Shown: positions 15,928 through 50,045, numbered from the stretch's first letter. The stretch is 64,000 bases of DNA from a virus (IMGVR_UViG_3300045988_154997:37871-101870), one strand, 5' to 3'. Notes: generated by a model not told the origin, from the sequence alone. Translations and numbers: made by a program.

Positions 15928-15985
15928 ACCTGCTTCCGTATAAATAATAATAAGTAACTTAGTATTTATATACAGAAGCAGGTTC
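15928..15985. repeat. ~58-bp palindromic element (CCTGCTTCCGTATA...AT-rich core...TATACAGAAGCAGG)
   Basis: 14-bp GC-containing arms around an AT-rich core with TAAGTAACTTAGTA; a paralogous element sits at 49989-50045. Confidence 0.5.
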
Positions 15986-16006
15986 CAAATTCAACCAGCA
16001 GGATGC

Positions 16007-17203
16007 TTAAACATCTTTTAGAAAGCCTGGAAACCAATGTTTCATGATATACCTAAAATGTGCTCTAGTTGGTTCAAAAACCTGTCTAGATACCAGCGCT
16101 CCATCAGGATGATTCTGAACAGACTGTTCTTTTTCCATATCGTAAAAATTATGAGTTATCTCTGGGGGGAAGAAAATATTTCTGTCCAGTGGCACTGTCG
16201 CAAAAGGATTGTAGTAAATATGAAGGCCGTCAAAGTGCGTCTCTTCATGAGCAGTGGAATGGCAAACTACAATATCCGCACCAGTGACTTCGTTATTTAA
16301 AAAATGCCGATATGTAGTGATGAAATGATCAGGACCTATCCTTTGTGTGTGCTTTCCCTCGTTTTTCATCCCTTCATTGGCGATGAAATCATTCACATCA
16401 ATGGCTCGATATCGTGTTGACCTTACATATCTACCGATACCGCTTTGAACCACGGCTTTTCCAAAAGTGCCGGTGGTGGAGAAAATAACCGCACTTATTT
16501 CTTTATATGAGTCGTTAGTAAATATACCTAATGGAATTTCAACGTCTTCATTCTTTTTGATTGAGGTAACTTTAGTTTGGCTGCCAGTCACCAAATTTCT
16601 GGTGGTAGGTTCCTCAATGCCAAACAACACTCGATTGATGATTGTGTTATTTTGAGACAATGATAAATCGGAGTCAAAGGGTGCAAGCGCCAGAACAAAC
16701 GGCTTATTAACTACATGAGACATCGTAGAGTACGGGAATTTTTTGCCATTAACTCCTGTAAAAAGATCATGTTTGTCTTTGATTTTTCCGATTAATTTTA
16801 GCGTTGATTGATGTTTGAATTTTGATTCGCTAAAAAGAGCACCTGCAGGTGGATTATGTGGCCGATCTGATATCACAGCTTCGACGTTAAACTGGTAGCC
16901 TGACGGTGTAGTAACACAGAAATCGGGACTGTCTTTTGTGTAGTCGACAGAATAATCGAGACGAATAAACATTTCGTTCAGATACAATTCCCATAAGGCG
17001 GAATTGAAGGTTGTCTGAAACTCTTTAACGAATTTAGTCTGCTCACCGCTACGCTCCAGTAACCCACGCCCCCACGACTGTATCACTTCTCTTACTGGAG
17101 CATATGTATTATCTTGATAAATCTGTTTAAAAGATTCGTGCAGCTTGTTTTTTGCTATTTTGGTTGAGAACAAATCCATTATTAGCCTCACTAACCAGTT
17201 CAA
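16007..17203 (-). CDS. hypothetical protein (398 aa), partner of the DUF2971-like gene
   Basis: Long ORF, moderately AT-rich, no motif recognised; immediately downstream of the DUF2971-like gene on the same strand. Confidence 0.45.
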   Translation of the reverse strand: MNWLVRLIMDLFSTKIAKNKLHESFKQIYQDNTYAPVREVIQSWGRGLLERSGEQTKFVKEFQTTFNSALWELYLNEMFIRLDYSVDYTKDSPDFCVTTPSGYQFNVEAVISDRPHNPPAGALFSESKFKHQSTLKLIGKIKDKHDLFTGVNGKKFPYSTMSHVVNKPFVLALAPFDSDLSLSQNNTIINRVLFGIEEPTTRNLVTGSQTKVTSIKKNEDVEIPLGIFTNDSYKEISAVIFSTTGTFGKAVVQSGIGRYVRSTRYRAIDVNDFIANEGMKNEGKHTQRIGPDHFITTYRHFLNNEVTGADIVVCHSTAHEETHFDGLHIYYNPFATVPLDRNIFFPPEITHNFYDMEKEQSVQNHPDGALVSRQVFEPTRAHFRYIMKHWFPGFLKDV

Positions 17204-17245
17204 TAAGAAAAGCGCCCAACATAATCATTTGAGGAAAGTCTGGAG

Positions 17246-17965
17246 CTACTTCAGCTTTTCTTTGACAAGAAGATAACCATCATCAGGTGTACTCATTTTG
17301 TAAACCTCGATGCTCGTGTCTAGCTGTGTCCGGGCATATTCTTCTACTTCAGGAGAAACGTTATACCCAAGAATGATCTCTCTAATATATTTCTTATCAA
17401 ATGCCTGAGCGCCTATTTTTTTAGTAATAACCCTTTGTTCTTCCTCATATTTCCAGCATTCGTGCTTGTAGAAAAAGAGCTTATCAAAAAGTACCTTAAA
17501 CTCATCTGTAACTTCATCGAACACGGGAACAGAAGGTATATATTTCACATTATCAAAGCTGTGATACCCCTCAATAGAGGTAACAAAATCATCATCAAAG
17601 CCTATGCAGAAACCTTTATGCGACACTGAGTAATGTGACCACATCAAGATGTTATCTTCGTTTGGTGACAAGCACACCACACCAAAAGCCCCTAATGATT
17701 CTTTCCGCAAATCCACAGCCAACGATTTTGCAGCTTCAGGAGCTACAGCATCCCAGTCTTCAAAGGAAAAATCCTTACATCCATTGTCTTCAAAGTGTTT
17801 CCGGCGCTCCACTTCTGTACCTCCCATCGTTATCGAAACTTTGAACTCTGATGGGTCGTTGAATGAAGAAGGTGCGCTAGCAGAGATAGTGCCGTCCTCT
17901 ACAAACCGTTTGAGGTTACGTAACACTTTTTGCGAATCTTCACTTCCAATATATTTGTAGAGCAT
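17246..17965 (-). CDS. DUF2971-like protein
   Basis: First ATG gives MLYKYIGSED...SSFNDPSEF...NILMWSHYSVSHKGFCIGFD; the LYKY / FNDP / MWSHY pattern matches my recollection of DUF2971. Track start 18004 is TTG. Confidence 0.45.
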   Translation of the reverse strand: MLYKYIGSEDSQKVLRNLKRFVEDGTISASAPSSFNDPSEFKVSITMGGTEVERRKHFEDNGCKDFSFEDWDAVAPEAAKSLAVDLRKESLGAFGVVCLSPNEDNILMWSHYSVSHKGFCIGFDDDFVTSIEGYHSFDNVKYIPSVPVFDEVTDEFKVLFDKLFFYKHECWKYEEEQRVITKKIGAQAFDKKYIREIILGYNVSPEVEEYARTQLDTSIEVYKMSTPDDGYLLVKEKLK

Positions 17966-18009
17966 TAGGGAACCTATAGAAAGAGGTGCCAAGCAGCACC
18001 TCAATAAAA

Positions 18010-18369
18010 TTAACCTTTCTTCATCAACTCGCGTTTGATTTCATCGGTACGCATCGTGACGTCGGCAGCAGTGATCGCCTCGTTAAGTTTCACGATATCC
18101 TCGATTTCCTGCGGCGACTTCTCTGCCAGATGGAAAATAGCAGCACGAATCACATCAGAGCGGGTGAATTTCTCGAAGCGAGGGATGAACTTCATCATCT
18201 CCAGCAGTTCGAAGTATTCGTCTTCCAGTGACATTGTGCGGCTTTTAATTTTCTCTTTGCCACGAGTCGGGCGTCCCTGTGGTCTGACTGGTTGGCGCAA
18301 AGGAGTTGTGTTCTTAGCCGGTGCATCAGGCTCTTTGCGCTTTGCTAGGTCACCCATTTTCATGGACAT
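18010..18369 (-). CDS. small partition partner protein (ParG/ParB-like, putative)
   Basis: 119 aa, basic N-terminus then helical C-terminus; directly downstream of ParA with a 1-nt overlap, as in type Ib partition operons. Confidence 0.45.
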   Translation of the reverse strand: MSMKMGDLAKRKEPDAPAKNTTPLRQPVRPQGRPTRGKEKIKSRTMSLEDEYFELLEMMKFIPRFEKFTRSDVIRAAIFHLAEKSPQEIEDIVKLNEAITAADVTMRTDEIKRELMKKG

Positions 18370-19037
18370 TATTCTTCTTCCTCCAGACTCAACAGATAAT
18401 CTACAAATTCTTCAAACTCGGCTTCCGCCTTTTTGTCGCGCTCGCTACCGGTCATTTCAAAGATAGAACGACCAGACTCTTCCGCATCATCGTAGACGTT
18501 GCGGTTATATAGATTGACAGGCGCAGACTCGATGCCAAACGTCTCGACAATCTCTTTAGCCGCCAGAATGCGAGACACTTGTGATGGCAAAGCCGGGCAC
18601 TGGTTCATGACCGCGCGGACCTTCACTTTATCGTTTACATTGCGAACATTGTCGATAATAGGATCGATGTCACGTAAAGATTTCAAATCACGACGCTTAG
18701 GACGCAGCGGGATAATGATAACGTCAGCCATCAGCATCGCTTGTCGCTGAATTTCGGAGTCGAAGCCACCAGCATCTACCACTACATACTCAGCTCTACC
18801 CTGAAGCGATTTTAGGTGCTTAATGATGTCATCCTGAACGTATGCAAAAGGAATCAGCTCAAGGTCTTCGTTCTGTCGACGGTCTTCACACCAGCTCGTT
18901 GTCGTGCGCTGAATATCTATATCGGTGATATAAACCTTCTTCTTCTTTTTGACTTTCAGGCAAACGGCAATTTGCTGGGCAACGGTGGATTTGCCAGGCC
19001 CGCCCTTTGTGCCGCCAACCACAAAGATCTTGGTCAT
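18369..19037 (-). CDS. parA: ParA-family partition ATPase
   Basis: Deviant Walker A GGTKGGPGKST at the N-terminus, ~220 aa, acidic C-terminal tail. Confidence 0.8.
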   Translation of the reverse strand: MTKIFVVGGTKGGPGKSTVAQQIAVCLKVKKKKKVYITDIDIQRTTTSWCEDRRQNEDLELIPFAYVQDDIIKHLKSLQGRAEYVVVDAGGFDSEIQRQAMLMADVIIIPLRPKRRDLKSLRDIDPIIDNVRNVNDKVKVRAVMNQCPALPSQVSRILAAKEIVETFGIESAPVNLYNRNVYDDAEESGRSIFEMTGSERDKKAEAEFEEFVDYLLSLEEEE

Positions 19038-19073
19038 TGGAGAGTTCCCTTTGCGTATATAATTATCGTCTGA

Positions 19074-19100
19074 AACAACTTGTTTTCTTATATGTGATAT
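19074..19100. promoter_or_regulatory. conserved promoter/operator element (AACAACTTGTTTTCTTATATGTGATAT)
   Basis: Copy of the AACAAnTTGTTTTCT element ~40 nt upstream of parA. Confidence 0.45.
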
Positions 19101-19172
19101 AGCCTAAATGCCTACGGCTGTGGTGTAAAGGTTTAATGATAGGTACATAGATTTGGTAAGGACTTAATAACA

Positions 19173-19197
19173 AAAAACCCGCCGTAGCGGGTTTAGG
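19173..19197. terminator. rho-independent terminator (AACCCGC-CGTA-GCGGGTT), minus strand
   Basis: Hairpin followed by a T-run on the minus strand, 3 nt after the stop of the 19200..19976 gene. Confidence 0.6.
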
Positions 19198-19199
19198 AA

Positions 19200-19976
19200 T
19201 TAGTGGTTGGTAGACCTGGCATCAAATGTTGTAACGCCCACTTCAATGTGGCGGTCTTCTTTGGAGATGATGGTGAGAATCTGACTAGATGGGTCTATGC
19301 TGACAGCCATAGGGTTCCAGTGACGTAACTGAGCCTCGCTGTTCAATAGCAGCGCATCCCACGGTTTGACGCCATTCTGCCCAATACCACCTTCAACAAG
19401 GACATCTATAAATTCTTTATTTAAATTGTCATAGATTTGGACACGCCCGACCAGAAGCATACCGACCGCCCAAATTCTGGCACCGTAAACCGTCTGATGG
19501 TCATCACATACCACATGGTCATGCCAATTGAGAAGGAAATTGTAAACTCTTCTAGCAAGTCCCTTTTGTTCCTTTGAAGGGGTTACAAATGCCCCTTTGA
19601 TCTGGACACCAAGGTGAGAGCCTTTTTGTGAGCGAAACTGGAAACGTTTGTAGACGAACCTGGCAATCTGAATGCCGTCATCATCTTCTTGTTCATCACC
19701 AACTAACTCACGAACACTATGAACTATCTCTGCTTCTGAATACCCCTGCTCGTCAAGATCCATTGCATGTTCTTGAAGCCAATCTGCATCAGGGTCGCCT
19801 ACAAATGATACTGTCAAACAGTAATCATAATTAGATCCCGTCAAGGACCATTCTGTGAGCCGTAAAACAGAAAAATCAGAGTTAACCATGTAGCCAACTC
19901 TGATTTTCTCTCTTGCTTCACATTCAGGGAAATCAGACAGAACTTTTGAATACTCTGCTATGAATGATGGTGACAT
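19200..19976 (-). CDS. hypothetical protein
   Basis: 258 aa ORF with an acidic stretch EQEDDDG; no motif recognised. Confidence 0.45.
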   Translation of the reverse strand: MSPSFIAEYSKVLSDFPECEAREKIRVGYMVNSDFSVLRLTEWSLTGSNYDYCLTVSFVGDPDADWLQEHAMDLDEQGYSEAEIVHSVRELVGDEQEDDDGIQIARFVYKRFQFRSQKGSHLGVQIKGAFVTPSKEQKGLARRVYNFLLNWHDHVVCDDHQTVYGARIWAVGMLLVGRVQIYDNLNKEFIDVLVEGGIGQNGVKPWDALLLNSEAQLRHWNPMAVSIDPSSQILTIISKEDRHIEVGVTTFDARSTNH

Positions 19977-20375
19977 TTAGTTCGCAAGCCGCATATCCGT
20001 AGATGAATCCAGTTTCGCTATTTTAACATCTACGCGGTATTTATCTTTGATAAATTTAGCTATTTTGCTTTCAATCTCATAGAAAGCATCCTGTTCACAA
20101 CGCACAACATCGGGAAACTGTTTTTCTGGCTTAACAAGAAAACGTAACCGATTGTTGAGCACCATCATTTCTGCAAACAATTTGATGGTAAACTTGCCTT
20201 CTTCAACGTCACTTTTAAGGTTAACGATGAAACGCTGATCCTTAAGCATACCCGGTTTGTTCATTTCACGAATTTGGAGCGAGTCATTCCAATGCCGCAA
20301 CGGAACCGATGCGATCATCTTGGTACAGTCTCTTATCGTCTGAATAGAACGAGATGCGTTAAGTGCAGTATGCAT
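19977..20375 (-). CDS. hypothetical protein
   Basis: 132 aa ORF abutting the previous gene. Confidence 0.45.
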   Translation of the reverse strand: MHTALNASRSIQTIRDCTKMIASVPLRHWNDSLQIREMNKPGMLKDQRFIVNLKSDVEEGKFTIKLFAEMMVLNNRLRFLVKPEKQFPDVVRCEQDAFYEIESKIAKFIKDKYRVDVKIAKLDSSTDMRLAN

Positions 20376-20549
20376 GTTTCCACCTTAGCCGGTAATAACT
20401 TTATGTCATAGCGGCGACCTTGTCGGTTTAGAGGCTACGAGTATGCGTCGATTTATTAAAACAAGGTATGATTTACTTGACATCCATGCTTCAAATCTAC
20501 CTTGTGCTCTAATAATATGCAAATTTTATGTTAGAAAATTCCGCTTTTA

Positions 20550-20789
20550 TTATGGCACTTTTCTGCCCCATCCACACAATCGCTCCCCTATCATATTGTG
20601 AAAAAGTACTTCCCTTTCAGTCTCTTCGGTCATGAGATCATCACGGCTGATGTATAGCGGTGTAGCCGCATCGCAGAAAAGCACACCAGAGGATTGAGGC
20701 TTAATCACGCAACCACTTATTGTGCAACTCATGATGAACAGTAGAAGCATCTTTGCGCCGTAACTCATCAAGTGTTTCATTTTTGACAT
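20550..20789 (-). CDS. outer-membrane spanin (Rz1-like lipoprotein), overlapping the i-spanin
   Basis: Internal start MSKMKHLMSYGAKMLLLFIMSCTISGC gives a signal peptide and lipobox; the frame overlaps the 3' part of the i-spanin gene. Confidence 0.45.
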   Translation of the reverse strand: MSKMKHLMSYGAKMLLLFIMSCTISGCVIKPQSSGVLFCDAATPLYISRDDLMTEETEREVLFHNMIGERLCGWGRKVP

Positions 20790-20952
20790 CCACTGTGCTT
20801 TGAAGTCGTTTCCTGTCTTCCTGTTTTGCCTTCTCTTCCATTGCTCGTCGCGCCGCATTTCCGCCCATCGTGTAAGCGCCGACCAGAACGAAAAGAACGG
20901 CAGCCAGCGTAATCAAAGCAACTTTTAGCTTTGTCATCAGGCTGCCTAGCAT
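20701..20952 (-). CDS. inner-membrane spanin (Rz-like)
   Basis: 83 aa; N-terminal TM segment ALITLAAVLFVLVGAY followed by charged coiled-coil; directly downstream of the endolysin. Confidence 0.5.
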   Translation of the reverse strand: MLGSLMTKLKVALITLAAVLFVLVGAYTMGGNAARRAMEEKAKQEDRKRLQSTVDVKNETLDELRRKDASTVHHELHNKWLRD

Positions 20953-20953
20953 A

Positions 20954-21995: not shown

Positions 21996-22051
21996 GAAAA
22001 GTCAAATCGGGATGGCGGATTTATATCACATTTCACCCTTTTGTTGTAGGT

Positions 22052-23228: not shown

Positions 23229-26200
23229 TTATTCTTTAGGTGAATTTAACTTCGTTTCAAGCTCCTCAACCCTTTTGGTCAATTGCTGAATATGATGAAT
23301 GAGTGGTACAACCAAACGCTCATACATCACTCCTTCAGCGACCATACCATTTGAGGAAATATCTCCTGGAGAATCATTATTTGTTGGTTCACGCCAATGG
23401 ACATATTGCGGGGCAATCTCACCAACCTCTTCAGCAATAAGGCCGTAATACCCCCAATCCTTTCGGTCACCTCGACAAATTGAACGATACCAAACAGGTC
23501 TTAATGACAAAAGTTCATCAGCATATCGATCTTGTAATGTTTCAATATCCTTTTTATAGCGCCTTGAAGATGTTGAACGCCAAACTGTATTGATACCTGG
23601 GTTTGGATCAATGTACATATTGGCACCGCTAGTAGTTGTGCCAATATCCCATATAGCAAACCCTCCACTACCGCCTGATTTGACAACCAGTGTTTCAGCA
23701 ATAATATCCAGGTTGCCACTATAGCCTGTCAGTGATGATCTGCTTGCATAGGAACTTAGAAGGTTTGTTACCTCTGTTTTCGTATAAGCATTAAGGTTAG
23801 CCGCAGTCAAAGTAATATCGGCAGAGCCATCAAACGCCACACCAGCAATTTTCCTTGCTGTCTGCAATTTTGTGGCTGTTGCGGCATTACCAGTAGTATT
23901 CTGATTACCGGTTGTATTCACACCAGGGATTGAATCCTTAGCGGTATATACCTGCGCCCACGCTGACCATGCCGCATCAGTGGTATCTCTTCTGGAGCGA
24001 ATGAAAACCGGCGCATGTGCACCGCTCGTACCACTCCAGCCAATAAGCAACTCGCCCTCACCAGCAGCACTCGCACCTTTCATGTGCAATACGTTGCCAT
24101 ACGTGGTCGGGTAGCTATTGTTGTACGCCTCGTACATTTGAATGCCAGCAGTACCTTGAGTAGAACCGCTTAAAGCCGTAACTCGACCACGAGAAACCAA
24201 TGTATTAATATTGATATCACCTGAACCATCAAACTTAACACCATTGATGTTTCTCGCTGTTTGCAACTTCGTAGCTGTTGAAGCATTGCCATTCAAGCTA
24301 CCATTTACGCCACCAGTAACATTTAGTCCATTACCAATAGACACAACACCGCTGCTATTATTAATTATAATCGGTCGCAAACTGTTCCATGAACCTAACG
24401 TATCTCCTGATGCTGTTAGCATGAAATATGTGCTGCCGCCGTCATTACGGATAAAGAACCCGTAGTTACCGTAAGCAATGCGGAAACCATTTGCATATTT
24501 TGAAACGATCTCACCAGAAGACGTTAACCCTCCAGATAATGTGCCACCTGAAAGCGGTAATGCTCCTACATCAGAAGCTGTTGGTTTGTTTCTAGTGTTA
24601 TAAGAACGACGCCAGCCTGGTGCATAATCACTTCCATTGTACACATAAATAAATTCCGCATTGTTAACACCACCATGACCCGATGTTGTTGTCGTTGTAA
24701 CACGAATAGTGTAGTGGCTTGTTGCCTTATTACTAAACACCTCAATCACGGAACCAGATAGATCGATCCTACCGCAACCAGTGTCGTCTATATAATTATT
24801 GTTGGCGTAAGTCCATGAGCACCGTGCGATCCAATGTTTGTTTGTAAATGCCCCCTGATTATTTAGCCAAGTTATAAATTGAGCAGTCGTAAATGCCGTT
24901 CCGTTACCACTATTTAACCATCCAGCGGCAGCGGTTGGCGCGTTTATATCAGCCGGCTGAGGCATAAATCCAGTCGTGTAAACCTGCTCCCAACCACTTT
25001 CAAAACCATAGCCATCTCTTGAGGAACGGTAGAACAGACCACCATTTTTATAGTGAGCTTTAATTTGAAGCGTACGGCAACTACCTACACCGGTATAAAA
25101 GTTGGCAAGAATATAACTGTCGCCTGTTCTAGTTACATTGTAAGCACCAGATTCAGCATTCCACGGCACGCCACCATCAGCATCCGCATATGACCCTGTT
25201 GCCCTTCTTGCGAAAGCGGCAACATGCGCAGCGGTTAAAGTGATATCAGTAGAACCATCAAATGGAACACCGGATATTTTTCTTGCAGTCTGAAGTTTTG
25301 TAGCAGTTGCAGCATTACCAGTGGTGTTCTGATTACCCGTAGTGTTTACACCTGGAAGGTTGATATTTGCAGAACCGTCGAAACCAACTCCACCGATAGA
25401 TCTTGCCGTCTGCAATTTCGTTGCTGTACTTGCATTACCATTTAATGTTCCGGTGATCCCACCAGTAACAGACAACGGACCTGAAACTGTTCCTCCGGTT
25501 GTTGGCAGTGCTCCAATATCTAACGGCGTCGGTTTCTGATGTGTGCTATACATCGTATAAACAACACCATCGGTAACGCTGGAAGGCTTACTCGCTGAAT
25601 ATGTTGGCGATGTATAAATAGAAACTGACGCATTTGCAGTACAATCCCAATGGATATTTACACTCGTCGCATAATTGCCAATTTCAACGTAAATATCATA
25701 TGTATCGCCGGATGTGTTGATCCAGGCGAAATTCGTTAATCCGACAGCTGTACGCTTCCACAAAGCACCTGTAATCCCTTTGGGGTTTCCATTGCCTGCT
25801 CGTAGAACCAGTTCTGAAATGCCTGCCTGATGTGGGGAGCCGACGTTGTAACCAGCGCCACCAATCAATGCGATGTAAACGATGGAACTCGCTTGTGGCA
25901 TTGTAACAGTAGCCAGTTTGAACCACCCGGCCCCGCCAGAGAAAGACATCGTTATTGAATTTAAAGTACCAATATCTTTCGGCGTTAATGTGATATCCGC
26001 AGTCAGTGCTTTCCCGTTAATTTTTCGGTTAGATGGCACCCTGCTGTTCGCATTGTCATTGACTACTTTAACTGCTTTTGGCGTTGCGGCCAGCGATTCA
26101 CTGGTGCTGTCGACAGCACTGCTAAGTTTCACAACACCTTTAGTTGTAAGGCTTGCGTCTTCCATCGCAACTGCACCGGCAATCTCTTCAGCACGATCAG

Positions 26201-27619: not shown

Positions 27620-30600
27620 TTACAGAAGGCCAATTCTTACTCGTAGGACGTTGTTATCGTCATAAACGTCAATCCGCTGACCATTTATGACCAGTCGCCC
27701 ATTACCCCCGCTATTACCGTTGATCTCAAGCGTTCCATTTTTGCCGAACCGCCATCCAGATCTACCGCTAACAAAATTGGTAGATTGCAGATCGCCTACT
27801 TTTGCATTGGTGATTGTGCCATCCTTGATATACGCACCATTCATATAGGCGATACTGTTTTCGATAACAAATGGCGTGGTGATCTTCCCGTTAACAGAGT
27901 TGACCAAACCAAACCTGTCAGCCTGCACCAAAAACTGAGAAAGGCCAGTGGTGTCGATACCAAGCGCAATACCAGCAACATACTTCTGCCCTCCGCTCGT
28001 TGAAGTTTCCATTTTCAACGTCCACGCGGTTGACACTTTTTTGTTGGTATCAGCAATAGCTGTTGCCTGCTGTTGAATTGTCGCGGTATTTCCATCCACC
28101 TCTGCTTTCAGAGTATCGATTCGCCCACTCAGAGCATTATCTGCCTGCGTTCTCGCTGTCGTTTCAGTTGTTACCGCCGCGGAAATGTTGGCTGCCGTTT
28201 GAGACTCTAAGTTTGTGATTTGAGTCGCCAATGCAGCATCTTGCTCTGTACGCGTTTTCGTTTCGGTTGCTACAGCCGCTTTAATATCCTCTTTGTATTG
28301 AGAGGTCAGCTTGGTGATCTGAGACGACAACGCCGAGTCAGCATCAGTTCGAGCCTGCGTTTCAACTGCAACGGCCGCACTAATATCTTTCGCTGTCTGT
28401 GCTTTTAAACTTGAAACCTCTTTTGTTAAAGCGGTATCACCATCAGCACGAGCCGTTGTTTCTCTGGCAAGAGATGCCTCGAGATCATTAGCTTTTGCTG
28501 TAAGAGACGAAATCTGAGTGGACAATGCACTATCGGCATCAGTCCTTGCCTTTGTCTCTACAGCAACCGCTGCGGCAATATCAGTTCCGGTTTGTGCTCG
28601 CAGGCTGTTAATTTCTCGTGAGAGCGCCTGGTCAGCACTTGCTCTGGCCTCCTGCTCCTGAGTGATGGCAGCGGATATATCACCGTCAACCTTTGACTGA
28701 AGCTGGTTTATTTGTTTGGCTAACGCAGAGTCCCCGCTTGCTCGGGCCTCCTGCTCACTACGTATTGCAGCAGAAATATCATCATCAACCTTTGCCTGAA
28801 GTTGGGTGATCTGGCTTGCCAGAGCCGAATCTTCCGTTGCTCGGGCTTCTTGCTCTTCCTTAATAGCTGCGACGATATCGTTGCTTACTTTCGACTCAAG
28901 CTGAGTGATCTGTGTCGTCAGAGCTTCATCGGCAGATGTGCGAGCCTCCTGCTCTGTACTAATCGCCGCGCTGATATCTCCTTCAAACTTAGATTGCAGC
29001 TGAGTGACACGCTTTGCCAACGCTTCATCGCCATCGGCACGAGCGGTGGACTCTTCCAGAATACTGGCCTTAATGTCTTCGCCAATTTCTACGCGAATTT
29101 CCTCAACCTTCGTGGCCATTGCAGACATATCATCAGCAAAGGTTTTCTGTGTTGTTGCGATCTTCGCGTTATTGACCATCTGCTTGTGCTGGTCTTCATC
29201 TTGACGAAGAGCCAGGTCAATATTTGTTTTGGCTAACGCCTCAATGTTCGTAGTCAGTTCTGCACTGGCACGATCGACCTCTGCAACCGTCTTTTTCATT
29301 TCTTCAACGGCAGCGGAGCTTTCCTCTACCGTTGACTGCAACACTTCCAGTTGTTTAGCGTTTGCAGCATCGCCTTCAACACGAGCCTCGCTTTCCTTAG
29401 CAATAAGAGCCGCCGCTTCATCTCTTGCAGCCTTTATTGCCTCGACTGTATTAGCGAGAGCTTTATCGTGTTCAGATACGGTGTTTTCGATTTCAACAAT
29501 TGCAGCATCAGTAGCATCAATTTTTTCAAACGCTTCATTGACCTTGTCGATCGTTGCCGAAACCTCACCTTTAAGCTCGGTTTGTGCGTTCTCCAAAGCA
29601 TCGCTACGCTCGTTGAATTTTATTTCAAAACCCGCGAGGTTATCGCTGAACTGCTTATCTAATTCAGCTATATCTTCCTTAACGTCGTTTACCGACCCCT
29701 CCAAAGATTCGACGCTCTGGTTGATATGCTCATTTAACTCGTCAACTGCTTCTTGAGAGGCTTTGCTGTTGATGTCCTCAAGCAGAGCCTGACCAAGCTC
29801 GGAAGATGTAATTTTGCCAGCCAGGAACGACAGTACATCGCGAGTTGTCGCCTCTGTACCCAAGTTTGAGTTCGGAGGGCTTAACATACCTCGCTTGTTC
29901 GATGCTCGAACCCAGTAATACCACGTTTCGCTATCCCCAAGACCAGCATGTGTAAAGGTGGTGCTTGCAGACTCTGCGATCAGTTTCGCCGTATCCAGAT
30001 TGTTGGTCTGGGATGCGTAAACATTAATGTGATCAAGGTCTACCGAATCTGGATTAACCCAATTCAGTATCACATTACGATAGTCTCCAACGGCCGTTAA
30101 TGACGTTGGTGCATCCGGCGGTGTCATTGTGCCCAGCACCTGATAAACGGTACTGATAATTTCTGTTTTTTTACCGTTGAATGAAACCGCATACAGTTGG
30201 AAGTCGTAGCGTCCATTCTCCGCGACATTAACGATTTCGTATTGCTCTTCGGTTACACGCGCCGATTGCCAGTTCGATACATTGTTTTCATCAGAACGTC
30301 GCCAACTGATCCAATACTCTGGAGATTTCCCTTCCCATGTTGCAGTCAGTTTTACTGACAGGTTGCCCGGGCTTGAGAGGTAAGTCCCTTCAGTGATTTG
30401 CAAATTAGACGGCTTGGAGTAAGTCGGGTCCAATACCGTCGTATTCTGCGGGATAAGCGTTGCACCATTGTCGATCGCCTCATATTTAGACGGATTGTTT
30501 TCAACAGCGGTGATGTCAAAGCTACCCGACGTTTCCCCCTGAGCGATGTTAACGATGCGAACGCGCATAGGTTCGAGATCTGGTTCTGTAATTGTCCAGA

Positions 30601-32350
30601 CACCGTTCAAAACAGGCGTTTCCGCTGACGACAGAGCTTTTGAAAACGTAACCTTTGTTATGTTTTCGCCAGTTTCAAGAACATCGCGCTCAACGATTTT
30701 GCCTTCCTGATTCAATATCCGAATAAAGCTGCCGCTTTTAGCTAACGACACAGGCGCATCGAGAGTGATGCTGTTTTTGGTAAACTCCACAATTCGACCG
30801 GAGTTACGTTTACCTGCACGATATTTGTTCTGAATCAGAACGGTTTCACCGGGCATCAGAAATGAGGCGTCTAAGCCGGCAGTAAATGTAATTACATCCG
30901 ACTCCATTCTGGCGGTATACAAAAGCCACAAACCAACTCGGTGAGCCTGGCCTCGGCTTGTACATCCAAATGCTACGACTTCTGTTTTACGCTCACCATA
31001 ACGGCGCATTGCGTCCTGATCTTCAACGTACTCGATATTTTGCTTATAACCGTCCTCCTTGTTGTTGTAGGTTACGAGCGCAACGGATGGGCGATCTTTA
31101 CGCGCAGAACCTTTATAGGTAAACAGTCCATCTTTGACGTTGGAGTTGGTAAACATCATTACCGGATCTGATGGGCTATCCTGCATGATGTTAACCATGC
31201 CACCAGCCCAAAACACCATGCCGCGGAATGCACCGGCAATATCCTGAATTAATCGGTATGCGTCTTGTCGACTGGTGATCTGCGTATTGATTGCAAAGCG
31301 TTTCTCTTTACCCCCAAAGCCATCATCGACCTCTTCGTCACAATATCGACCAATCTGGTAGAGCTGGCCGAGGTCAATCATGGATTCCGACACAAATTGC
31401 CCAAGACCATACCGAGTATTGGTAAGCAAATCGTAGAGAATCCACGCAGGGTTTGAAGAAGACAACAGCTTAAAAGTACCGTCCCATACGCCGACATAAG
31501 TATTGGTGTATTCGTTGTAGTTTGACGGTACTCGGATTTTGATACCGCGCACCAAATACGAACGGGAAGGCATTGTGCTACCAAACTGCTCTGAATTGAC
31601 CTTCAAGCCAACAAGAGCAGAGTTAGGGTAGTTCATTGGCGTGTCGACAATCTCACCGATGGAATCAACCCATGTGTCGTTGTAGAGGTACTGGCTACTG
31701 TTATCATCTGTAAGACGAATCACCCTAACCTTGTATGCACGACCAGGCTTAGGTAGTTTCAGCTCATAGCTACGGTAATACACGCCTGTTTTCTTTGCCG
31801 TTAGCGTGATATCAACGCTTTTCTCACCTTCTGCCACCACATCAGAAAATGTTGCGTCTCCGTTGGCGATCTGGAATTTGTACTTCACCGTAGTGCCATT
31901 TGTATCGCCAGAGCTTTTATCAACGCTACGTAAAGAGGGGAATTTCATGATGACACGAACGCGATCAGCTTCATCGTTATCGATTGAAACCGTAACGTCG
32001 TGTGTTTTTTTAAGCTGAATATTTACGGACTTAGGCGTTTCAACAAAATCAAAACCAGCCATTGGCGTCTGGTCTTGTGAGCCGTCACGAAAATCCCATG
32101 TAATACCGCTGAAGTTGGAAGAGCCATCTTCATTCAAGATCGGTAAATCGTCGATGAAGATCGACTTTGCGCCATTTACCAGGCCACCGATAACCCCCTC
32201 GCCAAGAAGGTCGAGGATGGCTGCCATAGCACGAGAATTGACAGTATCATCAGCTTCAACCGGGGTACGGCTGGAGCTTTTACTTTTCTTGCCACCAGCA
32301 CCGGCAATAAGAAGCGGTAATTTTTTCTTCTTGAACTGTTCCATGTCCAA
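27620..32350 (-). CDS. J: central tail fibre / tip attachment protein J with inserted tandem-repeat region
   Basis: N-terminal half aligns by eye to lambda gpJ (YPNSALVGLKVNSEQFGS, AFGCTSRGQAHRVGLWLL, KYVAGIALGIDTTGLSQFLV); contains ~10 tandem ~33-aa repeats. Confidence 0.85.
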   Translation of the reverse strand: MDMEQFKKKKLPLLIAGAGGKKSKSSSRTPVEADDTVNSRAMAAILDLLGEGVIGGLVNGAKSIFIDDLPILNEDGSSNFSGITWDFRDGSQDQTPMAGFDFVETPKSVNIQLKKTHDVTVSIDNDEADRVRVIMKFPSLRSVDKSSGDTNGTTVKYKFQIANGDATFSDVVAEGEKSVDITLTAKKTGVYYRSYELKLPKPGRAYKVRVIRLTDDNSSQYLYNDTWVDSIGEIVDTPMNYPNSALVGLKVNSEQFGSTMPSRSYLVRGIKIRVPSNYNEYTNTYVGVWDGTFKLLSSSNPAWILYDLLTNTRYGLGQFVSESMIDLGQLYQIGRYCDEEVDDGFGGKEKRFAINTQITSRQDAYRLIQDIAGAFRGMVFWAGGMVNIMQDSPSDPVMMFTNSNVKDGLFTYKGSARKDRPSVALVTYNNKEDGYKQNIEYVEDQDAMRRYGERKTEVVAFGCTSRGQAHRVGLWLLYTARMESDVITFTAGLDASFLMPGETVLIQNKYRAGKRNSGRIVEFTKNSITLDAPVSLAKSGSFIRILNQEGKIVERDVLETGENITKVTFSKALSSAETPVLNGVWTITEPDLEPMRVRIVNIAQGETSGSFDITAVENNPSKYEAIDNGATLIPQNTTVLDPTYSKPSNLQITEGTYLSSPGNLSVKLTATWEGKSPEYWISWRRSDENNVSNWQSARVTEEQYEIVNVAENGRYDFQLYAVSFNGKKTEIISTVYQVLGTMTPPDAPTSLTAVGDYRNVILNWVNPDSVDLDHINVYASQTNNLDTAKLIAESASTTFTHAGLGDSETWYYWVRASNKRGMLSPPNSNLGTEATTRDVLSFLAGKITSSELGQALLEDINSKASQEAVDELNEHINQSVESLEGSVNDVKEDIAELDKQFSDNLAGFEIKFNERSDALENAQTELKGEVSATIDKVNEAFEKIDATDAAIVEIENTVSEHDKALANTVEAIKAARDEAAALIAKESEARVEGDAANAKQLEVLQSTVEESSAAVEEMKKTVAEVDRASAELTTNIEALAKTNIDLALRQDEDQHKQMVNNAKIATTQKTFADDMSAMATKVEEIRVEIGEDIKASILEESTARADGDEALAKRVTQLQSKFEGDISAAISTEQEARTSADEALTTQITQLESKVSNDIVAAIKEEQEARATEDSALASQITQLQAKVDDDISAAIRSEQEARASGDSALAKQINQLQSKVDGDISAAITQEQEARASADQALSREINSLRAQTGTDIAAAVAVETKARTDADSALSTQISSLTAKANDLEASLARETTARADGDTALTKEVSSLKAQTAKDISAAVAVETQARTDADSALSSQITKLTSQYKEDIKAAVATETKTRTEQDAALATQITNLESQTAANISAAVTTETTARTQADNALSGRIDTLKAEVDGNTATIQQQATAIADTNKKVSTAWTLKMETSTSGGQKYVAGIALGIDTTGLSQFLVQADRFGLVNSVNGKITTPFVIENSIAYMNGAYIKDGTITNAKVGDLQSTNFVSGRSGWRFGKNGTLEINGNSGGNGRLVINGQRIDVYDDNNVLRVRIGLL
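28060..29010. repeat. tandem ~99-bp repeats inside the J gene (encode the 33-aa DISAAIxxEQEARxxAD repeats)
   Basis: Near-identical segments recur with 99-bp spacing (e.g. GCTCGGGCCTCCTGCTC at ~28737 and ~28836). Confidence 0.7.
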
Positions 32351-44499: not shown

Positions 44500-44572
44500 T
44501 TCTCGCTCCTACAAAAAGGGTGGGCGTATAGCCCACCCTTTAACATAGATAACTACCTATCTACCACACTGA

Positions 44573-45448: not shown

Positions 45449-45473
45449 CTATCAATTCCCTTTGATTTAGATG

Positions 45474-46361
45474 TTACTTAAGTCCAATTTTCCCCAGACC
45501 GGAGGCCAACTTATCCATAGTCGACTTGTTCTTCGGTTGGGATATTGTGTAGGTCGATTTGGAATGTGAGCCTACACCCTGCTTGGCTTCGCTACGCATC
45601 AATGCGTCAGCTTCCGGATCTGCCCGCACAATGCGTTCAATCGCGGATTCAAACGGCAACGGCTTACCTTCACCGTCAACCAGAACAGCTCGTTCTTTGT
45701 GACCTGCCGGTTTGTCATAACCCACTACGCTACCGTCTTCACCCACTTCAAAATGAGAACCGTAGATCACGCGGGCTTTTGCCGGGGTCATCAGAACTTT
45801 GTCACGTAGGAAGAGAGAGTTACTGAAGGAAGCGCCCACGGTCATCTCGACTAATTGAGATTTCAGTGATGCGTTTTCACTTTCCAGTGCTGCATAACGT
45901 TCGTCACGCTGTGCCAGCTCTGCCTGGTGTGCTTCGATCATCTGTTTTTTAACAGCATCGAACTCACCACGACGCTCCAGTTCAGCTTGCTCCGCCTCAC
46001 GACGTGCGTTTTCTGCGGCCTGTTCAGCTTCTAAAAGCTGGCGAGCACGAGCCGGATCGATATCACCGTACTGAGCAAGCTGATCGGCCAATGTGCGCTC
46101 TTTCTCTTTGCGCTTCATGTTCTCCTTCAGCAGTTCAGCACCAGCTTTCTTGGTTTTACGAAGTTCGGCCAGTAACTCTTCCTGAGTCATGCCAGCGTAT
46201 TCGTCATCGCCCTTCGGCTGCTCTTTTTGTTCCCCCTGTTTGTCAGGATCTTGTGTACTCTGCTCATTATCAGCAGCTACACCGCCAGCGCCTCCACGCT
46301 CATGCGCTTCAGCGACATCCATCAGACCACGACGGGCCAAAAGCATTTGCCACAGATTCAT
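45474..46361 (-). CDS. scaffolding protein
   Basis: 295 aa, strongly charged/helical (EAEQAAENARREAEQAELERR); between portal and capsid. Confidence 0.7.
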   Translation of the reverse strand: MNLWQMLLARRGLMDVAEAHERGGAGGVAADNEQSTQDPDKQGEQKEQPKGDDEYAGMTQEELLAELRKTKKAGAELLKENMKRKEKERTLADQLAQYGDIDPARARQLLEAEQAAENARREAEQAELERRGEFDAVKKQMIEAHQAELAQRDERYAALESENASLKSQLVEMTVGASFSNSLFLRDKVLMTPAKARVIYGSHFEVGEDGSVVGYDKPAGHKERAVLVDGEGKPLPFESAIERIVRADPEADALMRSEAKQGVGSHSKSTYTISQPKNKSTMDKLASGLGKIGLK

Positions 46362-46382
46362 AAAAATTCCTTTTGTTACTTA

Positions 46383-47957
46383 TCACTCGTTCTCTTGAGT
46401 AGATGAGTCCCCATTCCCTCGGGGTTGATCTTGCCCGCTTTCTTGGGCTGCACCACGATCATAAGTAAGTACTGACTTATTTTCAAGGGTATTTAGATCA
46501 TTTTTTGGAGGAAAATTCAAGAGATCTTTATCAAATTCCTTTTTCATCGCCTCAGTAATGTTCGGGAAAATCTTCTCAATAAGCATTTCCATCTGGTGAC
46601 GACGTACAGAGTCCGGTGCCTGAAGTAATGACAGTTTCTCGGCAACAGAAAATTCATCAGTAAGGCCACGAATATCGAAACTTTCTGGATACGCAATTAA
46701 AGAGTGGTCTTCGTCCAGATCTACCCCCATCCATTTCGCAACCAGTAGCATGATTTGGCGTTCAGCCCTTTCCAGACGCTCTGCTTTTGTGACAAGCAAG
46801 CTATTTACACGCTGGAAGTCATACATTTTTGCGGCACCAGATGAATTATCGATTCCCTGTGCGTTGTCCTGCTTCGTTCGCTCACCAGCTACACCAACTG
46901 AATGGTAGATTTCGTTAATCACCGTCTTAATCGTAGTGATGATCATCTGAGCTTGTTTCGGGTCTGGTGACAGATAAAACGGCTGGTTTCCACCTTCAGA
47001 ATCGTAGGTGAAGACTCGCTTTGTGCCCATTTCAAGCACTTTAGTGTGGTTTTCATCACCAGGTAAAAGCGACTGTACCGGTATAGCCAACTGGCTAAAT
47101 GTCTGATCCTGAATAATGGCATCAAGGTTTGACAGATAGTTTGCAACCGCACGATCAAGATAAGCGATATCATCGATCAACGATGGGCTGAAATACGGTG
47201 ATTCACTTTCTCCAATACAATCAACAGGAAACACAGGAACTACGCCGAGATTATGCTCACCGCTATCCTCTAAAATAACTTTTGCCTGACGGCGACCTGC
47301 TCCACCAGCGCCCTTCTTCACTTCCTCACGGAACAGATACCACTCGTTTTGTGTCCACAGACGATAACGTTGGTATTCCTGACCTGTAGAAGTAAAAGGA
47401 TCTGCGTCATCACGAGCGACTTCCACAATTAACGCCCACAACATATTCCCGTCGTCGTCCCATGCCACATCCAGCATTTGCTGAGGTGAAATCCAGTAGG
47501 CGTAGGCGCGAGCATCTTTCTTTTTCTCGTCAGCTACTGACTCAACATCACCACTCATCGTGCTATCGACAACAACCCATATGCGACCGTAAATAGACGA
47601 CTGCAAATCAATAGCGGCCATAAATGAGTCAATAGAGGCATTCTGGCGAGTCGCACGTTTCCAGAAATTGCGGATCTGCTCTGGTGCCTCTTCGATATTT
47701 CTATGAATGTCTTCTTTAAAGAGATATTTGTTGATGAGGTTTACCACCTCACGAGTGTGGTTGAAGCGATAAGCACGTTCAACTCGCTCCTTAAACTCCT
47801 GATCTCCCTCTTTAAAGTAACGAAAGATATTGTCTGTAAACCAACCACGCCCGCCAGCGTAAGTGCTGGCGAGGAAGTCCCAATGTTCTTTTTTCTTTTC
47901 GTATTCCGGGTGGCGTCGCGCCACCAGATCCTTAATTTGTTTGTCGTTCAATTCCAT
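46383..47957 (-). CDS. portal protein
   Basis: 524 aa directly downstream of the large terminase; acidic C-terminus. Confidence 0.75.
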   Translation of the reverse strand: MELNDKQIKDLVARRHPEYEKKKEHWDFLASTYAGGRGWFTDNIFRYFKEGDQEFKERVERAYRFNHTREVVNLINKYLFKEDIHRNIEEAPEQIRNFWKRATRQNASIDSFMAAIDLQSSIYGRIWVVVDSTMSGDVESVADEKKKDARAYAYWISPQQMLDVAWDDDGNMLWALIVEVARDDADPFTSTGQEYQRYRLWTQNEWYLFREEVKKGAGGAGRRQAKVILEDSGEHNLGVVPVFPVDCIGESESPYFSPSLIDDIAYLDRAVANYLSNLDAIIQDQTFSQLAIPVQSLLPGDENHTKVLEMGTKRVFTYDSEGGNQPFYLSPDPKQAQMIITTIKTVINEIYHSVGVAGERTKQDNAQGIDNSSGAAKMYDFQRVNSLLVTKAERLERAERQIMLLVAKWMGVDLDEDHSLIAYPESFDIRGLTDEFSVAEKLSLLQAPDSVRRHQMEMLIEKIFPNITEAMKKEFDKDLLNFPPKNDLNTLENKSVLTYDRGAAQESGQDQPRGNGDSSTQENE

Positions 47958-47975
47958 TTGAATAACCTTGGATAA

Positions 47976-47990
47976 TTACTTACCTATCGA
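47976..47990. promoter_or_regulatory. dispersed motif copy TTACTTACCTATCGA
   Basis: In the 26-nt gap between the terminase large subunit and the portal. Confidence 0.35.
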
Positions 47991-49240
47991 GAACCACCAA
48001 GAATAACACGGTTTTTGACTGGATACCTACGATGTACTGGATAGCCCAATGCGTCTGCACTATGCTCAATGCCACCTGTCTTATCCATATCTCGTGTTCC
48101 AGGCTTGTAGATGACTTTTTCCAGTGAATCAATCAAATGCTTGCACTTCGGATCGATATACAGCCGGATATCTCCAGATGCGGACATCAGCATTCGGTTA
48201 ACAGCATTAACACGATCCGCAATTGGCGGGTGCTTTTTCGAATAATCGACACGTAAGAATCCCTTCTCTTTGAATATGTCTACGTCAGACTCCCCACGAG
48301 CATGTTGGCGATAAGCACCTGCCGGATCTGGAAATACCGTTACCTGTGATTTCCAGCGCCAGAAGCGTCTCTCAAGCTCATCACAAACTTCTGCCGTGTT
48401 AGAGGAAAAGAGCACCAATTCATCAATTGCCCATAGCTCACCATTTGGCTGAGGTTGCAAAATTACTGAAGACATCGGGTCAATGTTGAAGTCCTGCCCT
48501 ACCCATATAGGCAACCGAGGGTTGAACTGAAGCGGTTTTACATGCACGTTACGATCGAACGGGTAGTAAACGCGCCCGGACATGTTCTCAAAGCTGGCCA
48601 GGTACTCCTGAGCGAACGATTTGGGGTCCATATCGTTCTTAGCAGCTTCAATTTCCGCCGTAGGTACAAACGGAGAATCGGCAGTTACAAACTGCCAGCT
48701 CTTCCACTGTCCCTTTCTTTGCAGCTCTACGTTCTGGCCTATAGTCCACAGTTTGTGAAATTCCGAGAAGCCTTTTGGCGTACCAATGATCAGTGCACCG
48801 CCGCGTGTCGATGAAAGAGTAGGTCGTAACACCTTGTACCAGGTGTCAGCCTTCATATCCTGAAATTCATCAAGCACTACAAAATGCAACGCTACGCCGC
48901 GCAGAGTGTCAGGCTTATCAGCACCTTTGAGGGCGATCTCCGAACCGTTCTTCAACACGATTGTCATCGTGGTGTCGTTCTTTTTCCTAACCCACTTACG
49001 AGGCAGAACTTCCTGTAGATCGTCCCATAAAATCTGGCGAGCCATCTGGTAAGTAGGAGCGACATACCAGACCCTTTGCTTTTTTTCCTTTGCCGCCGCA
49101 CGAATAATAGTGGAGATCGACAACCGGGATTTTCCCCAGCGTCGACCAGCACAAACAACTTTAAATCGATGCGGAGACTGGAAGACTTTCATCTGTCCAG
49201 AATGCAGTTGCACAAGACTGAGCGAGGACGGGATTGCCAT
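47984..49240 (-). CDS. terminase large subunit
   Basis: Walker A VVCAGRRWGKS, Walker B VVLDEF; C-terminal nuclease-sized domain. Confidence 0.85.
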   Translation of the reverse strand: MAIPSSLSLVQLHSGQMKVFQSPHRFKVVCAGRRWGKSRLSISTIIRAAAKEKKQRVWYVAPTYQMARQILWDDLQEVLPRKWVRKKNDTTMTIVLKNGSEIALKGADKPDTLRGVALHFVVLDEFQDMKADTWYKVLRPTLSSTRGGALIIGTPKGFSEFHKLWTIGQNVELQRKGQWKSWQFVTADSPFVPTAEIEAAKNDMDPKSFAQEYLASFENMSGRVYYPFDRNVHVKPLQFNPRLPIWVGQDFNIDPMSSVILQPQPNGELWAIDELVLFSSNTAEVCDELERRFWRWKSQVTVFPDPAGAYRQHARGESDVDIFKEKGFLRVDYSKKHPPIADRVNAVNRMLMSASGDIRLYIDPKCKHLIDSLEKVIYKPGTRDMDKTGGIEHSADALGYPVHRRYPVKNRVILGGSR

Positions 49241-49872
49241 TATTCGTCCTCCCCTTCACTTCCATCATCTGTCGCATCAAATTCGCTTAGAGCTTCTTCT
49301 TCCAACGTCTCAAGCAATTCGTCATCGATGATTTCAGGCTCGTCGTCTTCCTGACGTAATTTCGCCACCTGGGAAGGCGTAAGCTCACCAAATACCAGGT
49401 TCGGAATTTCTTCCTCGTCATTTTCCGCATGATCCATGCCCAATGCTTTGGACGAAACTTCAAAGCATTTTGCAAGGGTATTACTGGCTCTCTGTAAGCT
49501 CTTGAGAGAATCCTCAATCGCCCCTAAAGGCTTACCCTCACGTTTGGCCGTAGTGACTTCGACCATCACCATCTGCCCCAACGCATACGCCCAGCCGTCA
49601 TAACGTGTACGACGTTCTTCTATCTTTTCCGCACGGGCTTTAGCGCGAAGCTCTGCGTCAGATTTAAGAGACTCACGAACCATCTTCCCAACAGAGTCCG
49701 CGCCTTTCTCTAATCCTCGCTTTTTGAAATGTCTGGAGAGTGTTTCACGACGAATGCCGTACTCTTCCTCCAGCTTTGAGAGTGTATATTCGCCTGACGT
49801 CCATTTGGCTTCAGCTTCGGCCCACTCCGCTGGTGTCAGGCGAGTTTTTACCTCGTCTTTTTCGACCGTCAT
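49240..49872 (-). CDS. terminase small subunit (putative)
   Basis: 210 aa, N-terminal HTH-like YTLSKLEEEYGIRRETLSRHFKKRG, acidic C-terminus; start of the large subunit overlaps its stop. Confidence 0.6.
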   Translation of the reverse strand: MTVEKDEVKTRLTPAEWAEAEAKWTSGEYTLSKLEEEYGIRRETLSRHFKKRGLEKGADSVGKMVRESLKSDAELRAKARAEKIEERRTRYDGWAYALGQMVMVEVTTAKREGKPLGAIEDSLKSLQRASNTLAKCFEVSSKALGMDHAENDEEEIPNLVFGELTPSQVAKLRQEDDEPEIIDDELLETLEEEALSEFDATDDGSEGEDE

Positions 49873-49913
49873 AGATCCCTCTAAAACACACAGAGCGCGT
49901 CCATGCGCTCTAA

Positions 49914-49969
49914 AACAACTTGTTTACTGCATCTGCTAACCAACTTGTTTTCTGGGGTGTTTAATTAGG
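49914..49969. promoter_or_regulatory. two tandem copies of the conserved promoter/operator element
   Basis: AACAACTTGTTT (49914-49925) and CAACTTGTTTTCTGGGGTGTTTAATTAGG (49941-49969), upstream of the terminase small subunit. Confidence 0.45.
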
Positions 49970-49988
49970 TCTGGCATGTCTTACGAAG

Positions 49989-50045
49989 CCTGCTTCCGTA
50001 TATATTTAATAAGTTACTTATTATTTATATATACAGATGCAGGTC
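49989..50045. repeat. ~57-bp palindromic element, paralogue of 15928-15985
   Basis: CCTGCTTCCGTATATAT...TAAGTTACTTATTA...ATATATACAGATGCAGG. Confidence 0.5.

Follow-up and report, generated by a model that had tools for sequence, protein, structure and literature searches.

Long hairpins at gene boundaries of SSU5-like phage-plasmids

The 64,000-nucleotide (nt) stretch of viral DNA analyzed here (IMGVR_UViG_3300045988_154997:37871-101870; hereafter, the window, at its full length) contains two long palindromic elements, E1 and E2, both of which are located in gaps between minus-strand genes. Megablast searches placed it among the SSU5-like phage-plasmids of Enterobacteriaceae, as one from E. 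coli: the window showed 95–99% identity to the Escherichia phages CMS-2020a, PhiR41_1, and Cyrano (pLF82), approximately 84–87% identity to Salmonella phage SSU5, and approximately 79% identity to Klebsiella phage-plasmids such as pJN2-26. The genes between approximately 12.4 and 53 kb are nearly all on the minus strand, which is therefore treated as the sense strand below. E1 lies between the stop codon of an open reading frame (ORF) at 16007..17203 and the ATG (15809) of an ORF at 15069..15809, which encodes 246 amino acids (aa) and stands at the head of the DnaB-like helicase and primase genes. E2 is flanked by the stop codon of an 88-aa ORF at 50068..50334 and by the small terminase gene, TerS (49240..49872), which begins 115 nt downstream of the element. 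Both positions agree with the first-pass annotation, made from the sequence alone, which had placed two paralogous palindromes upstream of leftward replication and terminase operons.

The palindromes themselves were also recovered at the places and with the arms originally described. The 14-nt arm CCTGCTTCYGTATA occurs with at most one mismatch at 15929-15942 (+), 15969-15982 (-), 49989-50002 (+), and 50030-50043 (-); when two mismatches were allowed, the window contained six matches versus 0.52 expected, and none of 100 shuffled sequences reached six. Both elements rank among the longest local inverted repeats of the window, and folding of both regions relative to shuffled sequences gave z-scores of -5.5 to -7.1, with minus-strand folds of -29.6 kcal/mol for E1 (z = -5.5) and -37 kcal/mol for E2 (z = -7.1). 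E1 is a 54-nt hairpin (15929..15982, minus strand) whose arms, at 15929-15942 and 15969-15982, enclose an AT-rich core of 26 nt, and its minus-strand RNA stem is fully paired, including one G.U pair. E2 (49989..50043, minus strand) is 55 nt long and has 17-nt arms at 49989-50005 and 50027-50043 that are 88% complementary, again around an AT-rich core; its minus-strand RNA stem contains one A.A mismatch and one G.U pair. The arm ends read CCTGCTTC.../...GAAGCAGG, and only the right arm of E2 required correction: it is TATACAGATGCAGG, not ...GAAGCAGG. The AT-rich cores hold ATAAGTAAC-type words, the TAAGTA-type motifs noted in the first-pass annotation. E2 is in fact part of an extended palindrome of approximately 98 nt (49968..50065, minus strand), in which the outer arms GGTCTGG (49968-49974) and CCAGACC (50059-50065) are joined to the hairpin by partly complementary spacers. 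This extended form folded to -37 kcal/mol over 96 nt of minus-strand RNA.

Only two elements had been reported, and both exist, but a search for further copies showed that the family has three members per genome. A scan of PhiR41_1 (107,998 bp) identified exactly three copies: E3 at 13435-13487, E2 at 45582-45636, and E1 at 75115-75169. E3, which is directly after a Dam-type methylase gene, falls in a part of the genome outside the window. All three copies occupy intergenic gaps in a co-directional gene array, and the two in the window lie a few nucleotides past a stop codon. A three-way alignment showed that the shared unit exceeds the inner palindrome, with the word TCTGG upstream and CCCAGAC(C) downstream, 12–26 nt outside the arms; the downstream word of E1, common to E2 and E3, is CCCAGAC at 15903..15909 (minus strand).

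To compare the elements among relatives, related loci were collected from IMG/VR with neighboring proteins as anchors, all in the sense orientation. E1 was kept at 78 of 80 related loci (30 distinct variants) and E2 at 73 of 75 (19 variants), and the E3 set comprised 67 loci (23 variants); the similarity between the elements is thus conserved. All three copies were kept in relatives from E. coli, Klebsiella, Salmonella, Kluyvera, and Yersinia, and the Kluyvera E3 was located at 3104-3160 (L169). The distant lineages were reached by aligning the large terminase subunit (TerL) and then fetching the regions upstream of TerS; PLSDB contained no record of the most distant ones. In a pattern scan of one genome for each of 185,579 species, 12 stretches were detected, of which 10 were SSU5-like and two were chance matches. 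The SSU5-like matches comprised Kluyvera (a single 108.7-kb contig with three copies), Buttiauxella, Yersinia pestis pMT1, and one metagenome-assembled genome that is probably contaminated. Exact-arm scans for the variant arms of one distant lineage returned only the known E3 copy or chance matches. Rfam searches of both palindrome regions (E <= 10) returned chance matches only (generic microRNA hairpins), far under the gathering scores, and neither arm sequence was found in the literature searched.

Strand-specific pairing, U-tracts, and RNA levels

E1 looks like an intrinsic terminator on the coding strand. A U-tract, TCTTTTTCTATGCC, follows directly 3' of the stem (15914..15928, minus strand), the coding strand just past E1 reading TCTTTTTCT, and the word TCTTTT(T/A) stood directly after the hairpin in nearly all of 31 flank variants. 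In a TransTermHP-style score, only ~3.5% of the background of the window did as well as the E1 tail. E3 is similar, with a coding-strand tail of CTTTTT or CTGTTTTG in nearly all lineages. The mean number of T residues in the 9 nt beyond the hairpin was 5.6 for E1 and 4.6 for E3 on the coding strand, versus 4.0 and 2.9, respectively, on the other strand. In the first-pass annotation, both elements were said to lack a clear T-run; this is true of E2 on either strand and of the plus strand of E1, but not of the E1 coding strand. A simple promoter/terminator scan of the window had missed E1 and E2 because its loop limit was 3–8 nt.

The pattern of substitutions in the arms also points to RNA. Among the 14-bp arm pairs of the 30 E1 variants, 383 were Watson–Crick, 32 were G.U, three were A.C, and two were other combinations, and the G.U pairs were spread over five stem positions. 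Because a G.U pair on one strand corresponds to A.C on the other, this bias suggests that E1 is constrained as sense-strand RNA, and its sense RNA was more stable than the antisense RNA in 25 of the 30 variants. For E2, the arms contained nine G.U pairs versus one A.C pair, and the sense-strand bias was moderate (25 of 34 variants). A stable stem-loop is therefore predicted in the transcribed-strand RNA from the folds of E1 and E2 and from the G.U bias of E1. No RNA polymerase-like ORF was identified, and the large ORFs of unknown function proved to encode an usher, CobT, DUF4942, and a gp32-like protein. Since no phage RNA polymerase was found, the rules of host intrinsic terminators should apply.

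Published RNA sequencing (RNA-seq) data from the LF82 lysogen of Cyrano/pLF82 (PMC9928086, S1 table) bear on this. The values for ParA, CYRAN_29, and CYRAN_30, which precede E1, were 49.8, 89.1, and 54.6 fragments per kilobase per million mapped reads (fpkm), respectively, whereas CYRAN_31, beyond E1, reached 6.2 fpkm. The gene-level RNA thus dropped approximately 9-fold across the hairpin (54.6 to 6.2 fpkm), and in one condition, the log2 value fell from 10.4 to 2.6 (PMC9928086). The prophage median was 9.8. This decrease fits an efficient stop at E1. The first-pass annotation had held that the elements were not obviously terminators and might instead be bent-DNA, recombination, or host-factor sites; for E1, the conserved U-tract, the G.U bias, and the RNA drop in Cyrano favor a terminator after all.

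The genes immediately upstream of E1 in the sense direction (phrog_8571 and DUF2971; 16007..18004, minus strand) are variable and low in GC (0.40 versus 0.46–0.48 in the adjoining 2-kb windows), and their 3' end abuts E1. Among relatives, at least a dozen unrelated contexts were observed upstream of E1, and homology broke exactly at the hairpin. Judged from these contexts, a cargo hot spot beside parA has E1 as one of its edges.

The situation at E2 is less simple. In the E. coli/Klebsiella/Salmonella clade (the main clade), no U-tract was detected on either strand in 21 flank variants (at most four T residues in 9 nt and no run), and the E2 tail scored at the 24th percentile of the window background. 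A small GC-rich hairpin followed by TGTGTTTTAG (49881..49912, minus strand), resembling a canonical terminator and kept in relatives, lies just before the TerS ribosome-binding site, and two operator-like AAACAAnTTGTT sites (49914..49953, minus strand) stand between it and E2. In several distant lineages, E2 is followed by a clear U-tract (CTCTCTTTTTAG, TCTGTTTTTTTTAG, and TCTTTTTTATC) and the small downstream hairpin is not, whereas the main clade shows the reverse. Intrinsic terminators call for a U-tract of approximately 7–9 nt directly 3' of the stem; such a tract is present at E1, at E3, and at the E2 of several distant lineages and absent from the main-clade E2. A comparable replacement was found at E3, which in one clade has decayed to a single arm with a canonical GC hairpin and T-run right behind it. 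Together, the decayed E3 and the exchange of the U-tract between E2 and the small hairpin suggest that a terminator is kept at each position and that either hairpin can supply it. E2 also keeps to the end of its upstream gene where, in one clade, an insertion of 1.1 kb has moved TerS away, and the family varies in hairpin length as a stem-loop would allow; both observations favor the terminator reading.

We lean, with moderate confidence, toward the reading that E1, E2, and E3 form a hairpin family marking the boundaries of transcription units, in which E1 and E3 are intrinsic terminators and the copies are kept alike by gene conversion. Under this proposal, a three-member family of long hairpins with AT-rich cores would act on minus-strand RNA as boundary elements, with E1 and E3 serving as factor-independent terminators. 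At E1, RNA polymerase leaving the partition and cargo genes would transcribe the 14-bp GC-containing stem and then the U-tract, and would be released. The stop would insulate the replication operon behind it (the 246-aa ORF, the DnaB-like helicase, and the primase), which would have its own regulated start. E2 would serve likewise where the operon preceding the terminase genes ends. In the main clade, E2 would have lost its U-tract, and the small canonical terminator 95 nt downstream probably gives the actual stop; there, E2 may only pause the polymerase or protect or process RNA 3' ends. Recombination between the copies, in the form of gene conversion, would keep them alike. We infer termination itself, the insulator role, and gene conversion as the homogenizing force, whereas the family and its conservation, the strand-specific pairing, the U-tracts, the RNA drop at E1 in a relative, and the arm variants common to copies of one genome were observed. 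E1 is the well-supported case; for E2, the proposed role is tentative.

Several observations weigh against the terminator proposal. The U-less E2 is the best conserved and most extended of the copies. In one intermediate clade, E1 is located between divergent genes with the T-run on the opposite strand, and the upstream neighbor of E1 in PhiR41_1 is encoded on the other strand. The E3 arms contained seven G.U pairs versus 11 A.C pairs, that is, no sense bias, and the antisense fold was the more stable; at this site, the comparison of G.U and A.C pairs says nothing either way about strand constraint. Relative to E2, the orientation of E3 is flipped in the Klebsiella, Salmonella, and Kluyvera clades. 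The RNA-seq values are gene-level data from a relative, and they are uninformative for E2 and E3, whose neighboring genes show only background levels in lysogens. Finally, ordinary terminators need no common sequence, so the shared arms and their lineage-specific variants call for an extra force.

Compared with the intrinsic (Rho-independent) terminators of E. coli and its phages, the family shares the GC-rich base of the stem and the U-tract (E1 and E3), the location at the end of a transcription unit, and the RNA drop over E1 in a relative. It differs in the unusual length of the stem (~25 bp), whose upper half is AT-rich, in having three copies of one sequence that evolve together, and in the absence of a U-tract from the main-clade E2.

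Concerted evolution and competing explanations

The three copies have common arms and site-specific cores, and the arms are kept across genera despite divergent flanks. The arms of distant lineages have changed, but the same lineage-specific variant is found in the copies of a given genome. In contig 2597490185_000004, for example, the E3 arms are CCTTGCTCCCATA / TATGGGAGCAAGG and the right arm of E2 is TATGGGAGCAAGG; in 2751185775_000001, both E3 and E2 have CCGTG...CACGG; in 3300045988_137243, both contain GGAGCCAGG; and in 2843521547_000006, E3 contains CCAGAGCAAGG and E2 contains CCAGAGCACGG. In seven genomes of close relatives, E1 and E2 were identical over all 55 nt, a rare CTTTCG variant was common to E1 and E3 in one genome, and one lineage had the same unusual core at all three sites. 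Over the close relatives as a whole, the gap was slight, the E1–E2 distance being 4.95 within genomes versus 5.62 between genomes. Judged from these sequences, clear signs of concerted evolution are limited to distant lineages and individual genomes. The simplest cause of this evolution would be that palindromic units of ~100 bp undergo gene conversion with one another in a phage proficient in recombination, as the shared variants suggest. Such recombination is a putative mode of copy evolution and is distinct from the function of the hairpins.

A more interesting alternative cause is co-evolution with one trans-acting factor. The palindromes would then be cis sites of a single phage-encoded, sequence-specific factor that co-evolves with the arms, with the small terminase, the small protein whose gene adjoins E2, or an RNA-binding antiterminator as candidates; we consider this doubtful, but worth keeping in mind. 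If it were true, the sites would be switchable terminator or operator (or packaging) elements that coordinate, at three operon boundaries, the switch from maintenance as a plasmid to lytic growth. In its broader form, in which the sites are recognized by a regulator that binds DNA (the small protein encoded just upstream of E2, for instance) or by an RNA-binding antiterminator and may also be terminators, with binding at three operon boundaries coordinating plasmid-mode and lytic expression, the idea is about as doubtful. Identical arms at three sites with differing cores, kept across genera despite diverged flanks, are what a common factor would produce, as are the arm variants that, in four distant lineages, E2 has in common with the E3 of its own genome. 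The ORF at 50068..50334 (minus strand), which encodes an 88-aa basic protein (phrog_900), adjoins E2 directly upstream in every lineage examined, and its homologue has been labeled DNA-binding by the Cyrano annotators. We regard this protein as a candidate trans factor; searches found no Pfam family and no relative of solved structure for it. There is also a precedent in terminator palindromes that double as transcription-factor sites, such as those of LexA at yobI/ruvA (bioRxiv 10.64898/2026.08.19.745784). As in those promoter-coupled terminators, the palindrome here stands just before the control region of the next operon, which would explain the conservation of its sequence. However, the arm spacing in the present family is variable, and no convincing sigma-70 promoter was found overlapping E1 or E2. 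The hairpin is 49–57 nt long among close relatives, as TA units in the core expand and contract, and 77 nt long in one distant relative. This variation argues against a fixed dimer-binding site, because a stem-loop tolerates changes in length that a dimer on B-DNA would not, and arm spacings that differ by up to 8 bp among close relatives are awkward for such a dimer. Moreover, no isolated half-sites were found elsewhere in the complete genome of PhiR41_1, and gene conversion explains the shared variants without any factor, as the seven genomes with identical 55-nt copies at two sites illustrate.

The hairpins, E2 above all, might instead be RNase III processing or retroregulation sites, in which a read-through duplex of 25–45 bp is cut and the operon mRNAs are separated or destabilized, as at lambda sib/tI and the intergenic sites of T7. 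We consider this rather unlikely. The predicted stems are at least 25 bp long, which exceeds the length of approximately 20 bp of double-stranded RNA needed for cleavage, and E2 with 30–40 nt of flank on each side is predicted to form a nearly continuous duplex of ~45 bp. The flanks of E2 were significantly complementary relative to shuffled flanks (mean z = -4.3), with 36 of 36 variants below -2, and the outer stem was retained by RNAalifold. The U-less E2 should be read through, and the outer arms lie past the expected end of a terminated transcript, as in lambda sib. The lambda and T7 sites are similarly long intergenic phage hairpins, with outer pairing only in the read-through RNA; here, the hairpins are known from predicted folds, and the outer pairing is robust only for E2. 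For E1, the outer arms paired to no significant degree (20% of variants), and for E3, their pairing was weak (31% of variants). Covariation in the outer stem of E2 was slight, and the sense bias of E2 was no more than moderate, as described above.

It is very improbable that E2 is a packaging site (pac or cos) cut by the terminase, with E1 and E3 as secondary or decoy copies. E2 is 115 nt upstream of the small terminase gene, and the GenBank records of SSU5 and Cyrano begin and end inside E2, the Cyrano record having been oriented after that of SSU5. Other assemblies, however, start inside E1 (L088 and L101) or end within ~35 nt upstream of E3 (L203 and L239), the large terminase is of the Terminase_3/6N type, which is usually linked with headful packaging, and a genome with three equal cut sites would be fragmented. 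A 1.1-kb insertion parts E2 from TerS in one clade, and E2 is still at the 3' end of the upstream gene, which argues against a packaging site tied to TerS. Given the breaks at E1 and E3 and the TerL type, an assembly break at a repeated palindrome explains the SSU5 boundary more simply than a physical genome end at E2 would, and the boundary is treated here as an artifact. The SSU5 record JQ965645 ends in the palindrome (L006 1-20 and L007 1460-1500), and the start of this reference is probably an assembly break rather than a physical end. A search of the literature on SSU5 cohesive ends, termini, and palindromes found nothing relevant; a paper on attC sites in phages names SSU5 only in passing.

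Equally improbable is a role at the DNA level, as cruciform or unwinding elements of a replication origin or as sites of recombination or telomere resolution: the palindromes are ~55 bp with AT-rich centers, E1 adjoins the replication genes, and E1 is the exact edge of the hypervariable cargo region, but the cumulative GC skew has no inflection at 15.9 or 50.0 kb, the Rep3-type initiator (the likeliest site of the plasmid origin) is ~30 kb from the nearest copy in PhiR41_1, and the G.U bias of E1 points to RNA.

Further specific candidates were rejected individually. A replication origin is contradicted by the GC skew at both sites and by the position of the Rep3-type initiator (104.4–105.5 kb of PhiR41_1), far from the three copies. 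The protelomerase sites of linear phage-plasmids, such as N15 telRL (~56 bp), are likewise palindromes of similar size in phage-plasmids, but the records of PhiR41_1 and pJN2-26 are circular, the full PhiR41_1 record has no annotated protelomerase, each genome has three copies, and the center is imperfect and variable in length. Tyrosine-recombinase cores of the loxP/dif type have 11–13-bp arms and a fixed 6–8-bp spacer, whereas the arms here are 21–29 bp apart and the spacing varies among close relatives. Integron attC sites were dismissed because no R''/R' cores (RYYYAAC ... GTTRRRY) were seen in the sequence of either element. A dispersed or mobile repeat, or miniature inverted-repeat transposable element, was rejected on the grounds of the three copies in a complete genome and the pattern scan, in which 10 of 12 stretches were SSU5-like and two were chance. 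The repetitive extragenic palindromes (REP/BIME), ERIC elements, and Neisseria Correia elements are also repeated, transcribed, imperfect palindromes that can terminate or stabilize mRNA and are homogenized within a genome; unlike them, the present family has only three copies, at fixed syntenic positions, in SSU5-like elements only, with no sign of mobility.

Other repeats of the window and significance of the hairpins

The window contains further repeated motifs. The 20-nt motif GATAAGTAAGTAnnTACCTA occurs in 12 copies at up to three mismatches versus 0.02 expected, mostly on the minus strand, at positions including 3554, 7194, 10555, 15823, 22047, 27572, 34484, 46460, 47969, and 53260. Where checked (15823, 47969, and 53260), it is located 1–14 nt upstream of a start codon, including that of the intra-operon junction of TerL and the portal gene. 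The member beyond E1, AATAAGTAAGTAACTACCTA (15823..15842, minus strand), is 14 nt upstream of the ATG of the 246-aa ORF. Within the motif, TAAGTAAGTAA gives TAA in all three frames, and ATAAGTAAC is contained in both this motif and the hairpin cores. A second, operator-like motif, AGAAAACAAnTTGkT, with the palindromic core AAACAAnTTGTTT, was found at nine sites at up to one mismatch versus 0.09 expected (15046, 19074, 49914, 49939, 54896, 59055, 59815, 60722, and 61206). Some of these sites precede the helicase, ParA, and TerS genes, with two of them ahead of TerS, and others are grouped at 59–61 kb; they are likely a set of repressor operators.

Tandem repeats at 28607-29002 comprise four 99-nt (33-codon) units with 62–72% identity to the first and fall within a 1576-aa ORF (27620..32350, minus strand), and further repeats at 23800-25440 fall within a 1432-aa ORF; the products of both ORFs are probably tail proteins. 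A cluster of tRNA genes for Ser, Thr, Tyr, and Asn (5890-6447, minus strand) is surrounded by four long local inverted repeats at 5810-5887, 6117-6203, 6654-6717, and 6905-6994, with arms of 14–24 nt that are 36–42 nt apart.

On the best-supported reading, E1, E2, and E3 form a small family of long hairpins that evolve in concert and serve as terminators or insulators where operons meet. The concerted evolution of three copies offers a small and tractable case in which to ask whether gene conversion or a common factor can keep terminators alike. These palindromes also break short-read assemblies, which probably accounts for the odd place at which the SSU5 reference record starts. Clinical Enterobacteriaceae often harbor SSU5-like phage-plasmids, whose variable cargo includes resistance genes and whose transcription map is still sparse. 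The hairpins provide three fixed landmarks that divide this genome into units, and E1 in particular is a practical marker of the cargo boundary and likely an insulator of the replication genes from cargo promoters.

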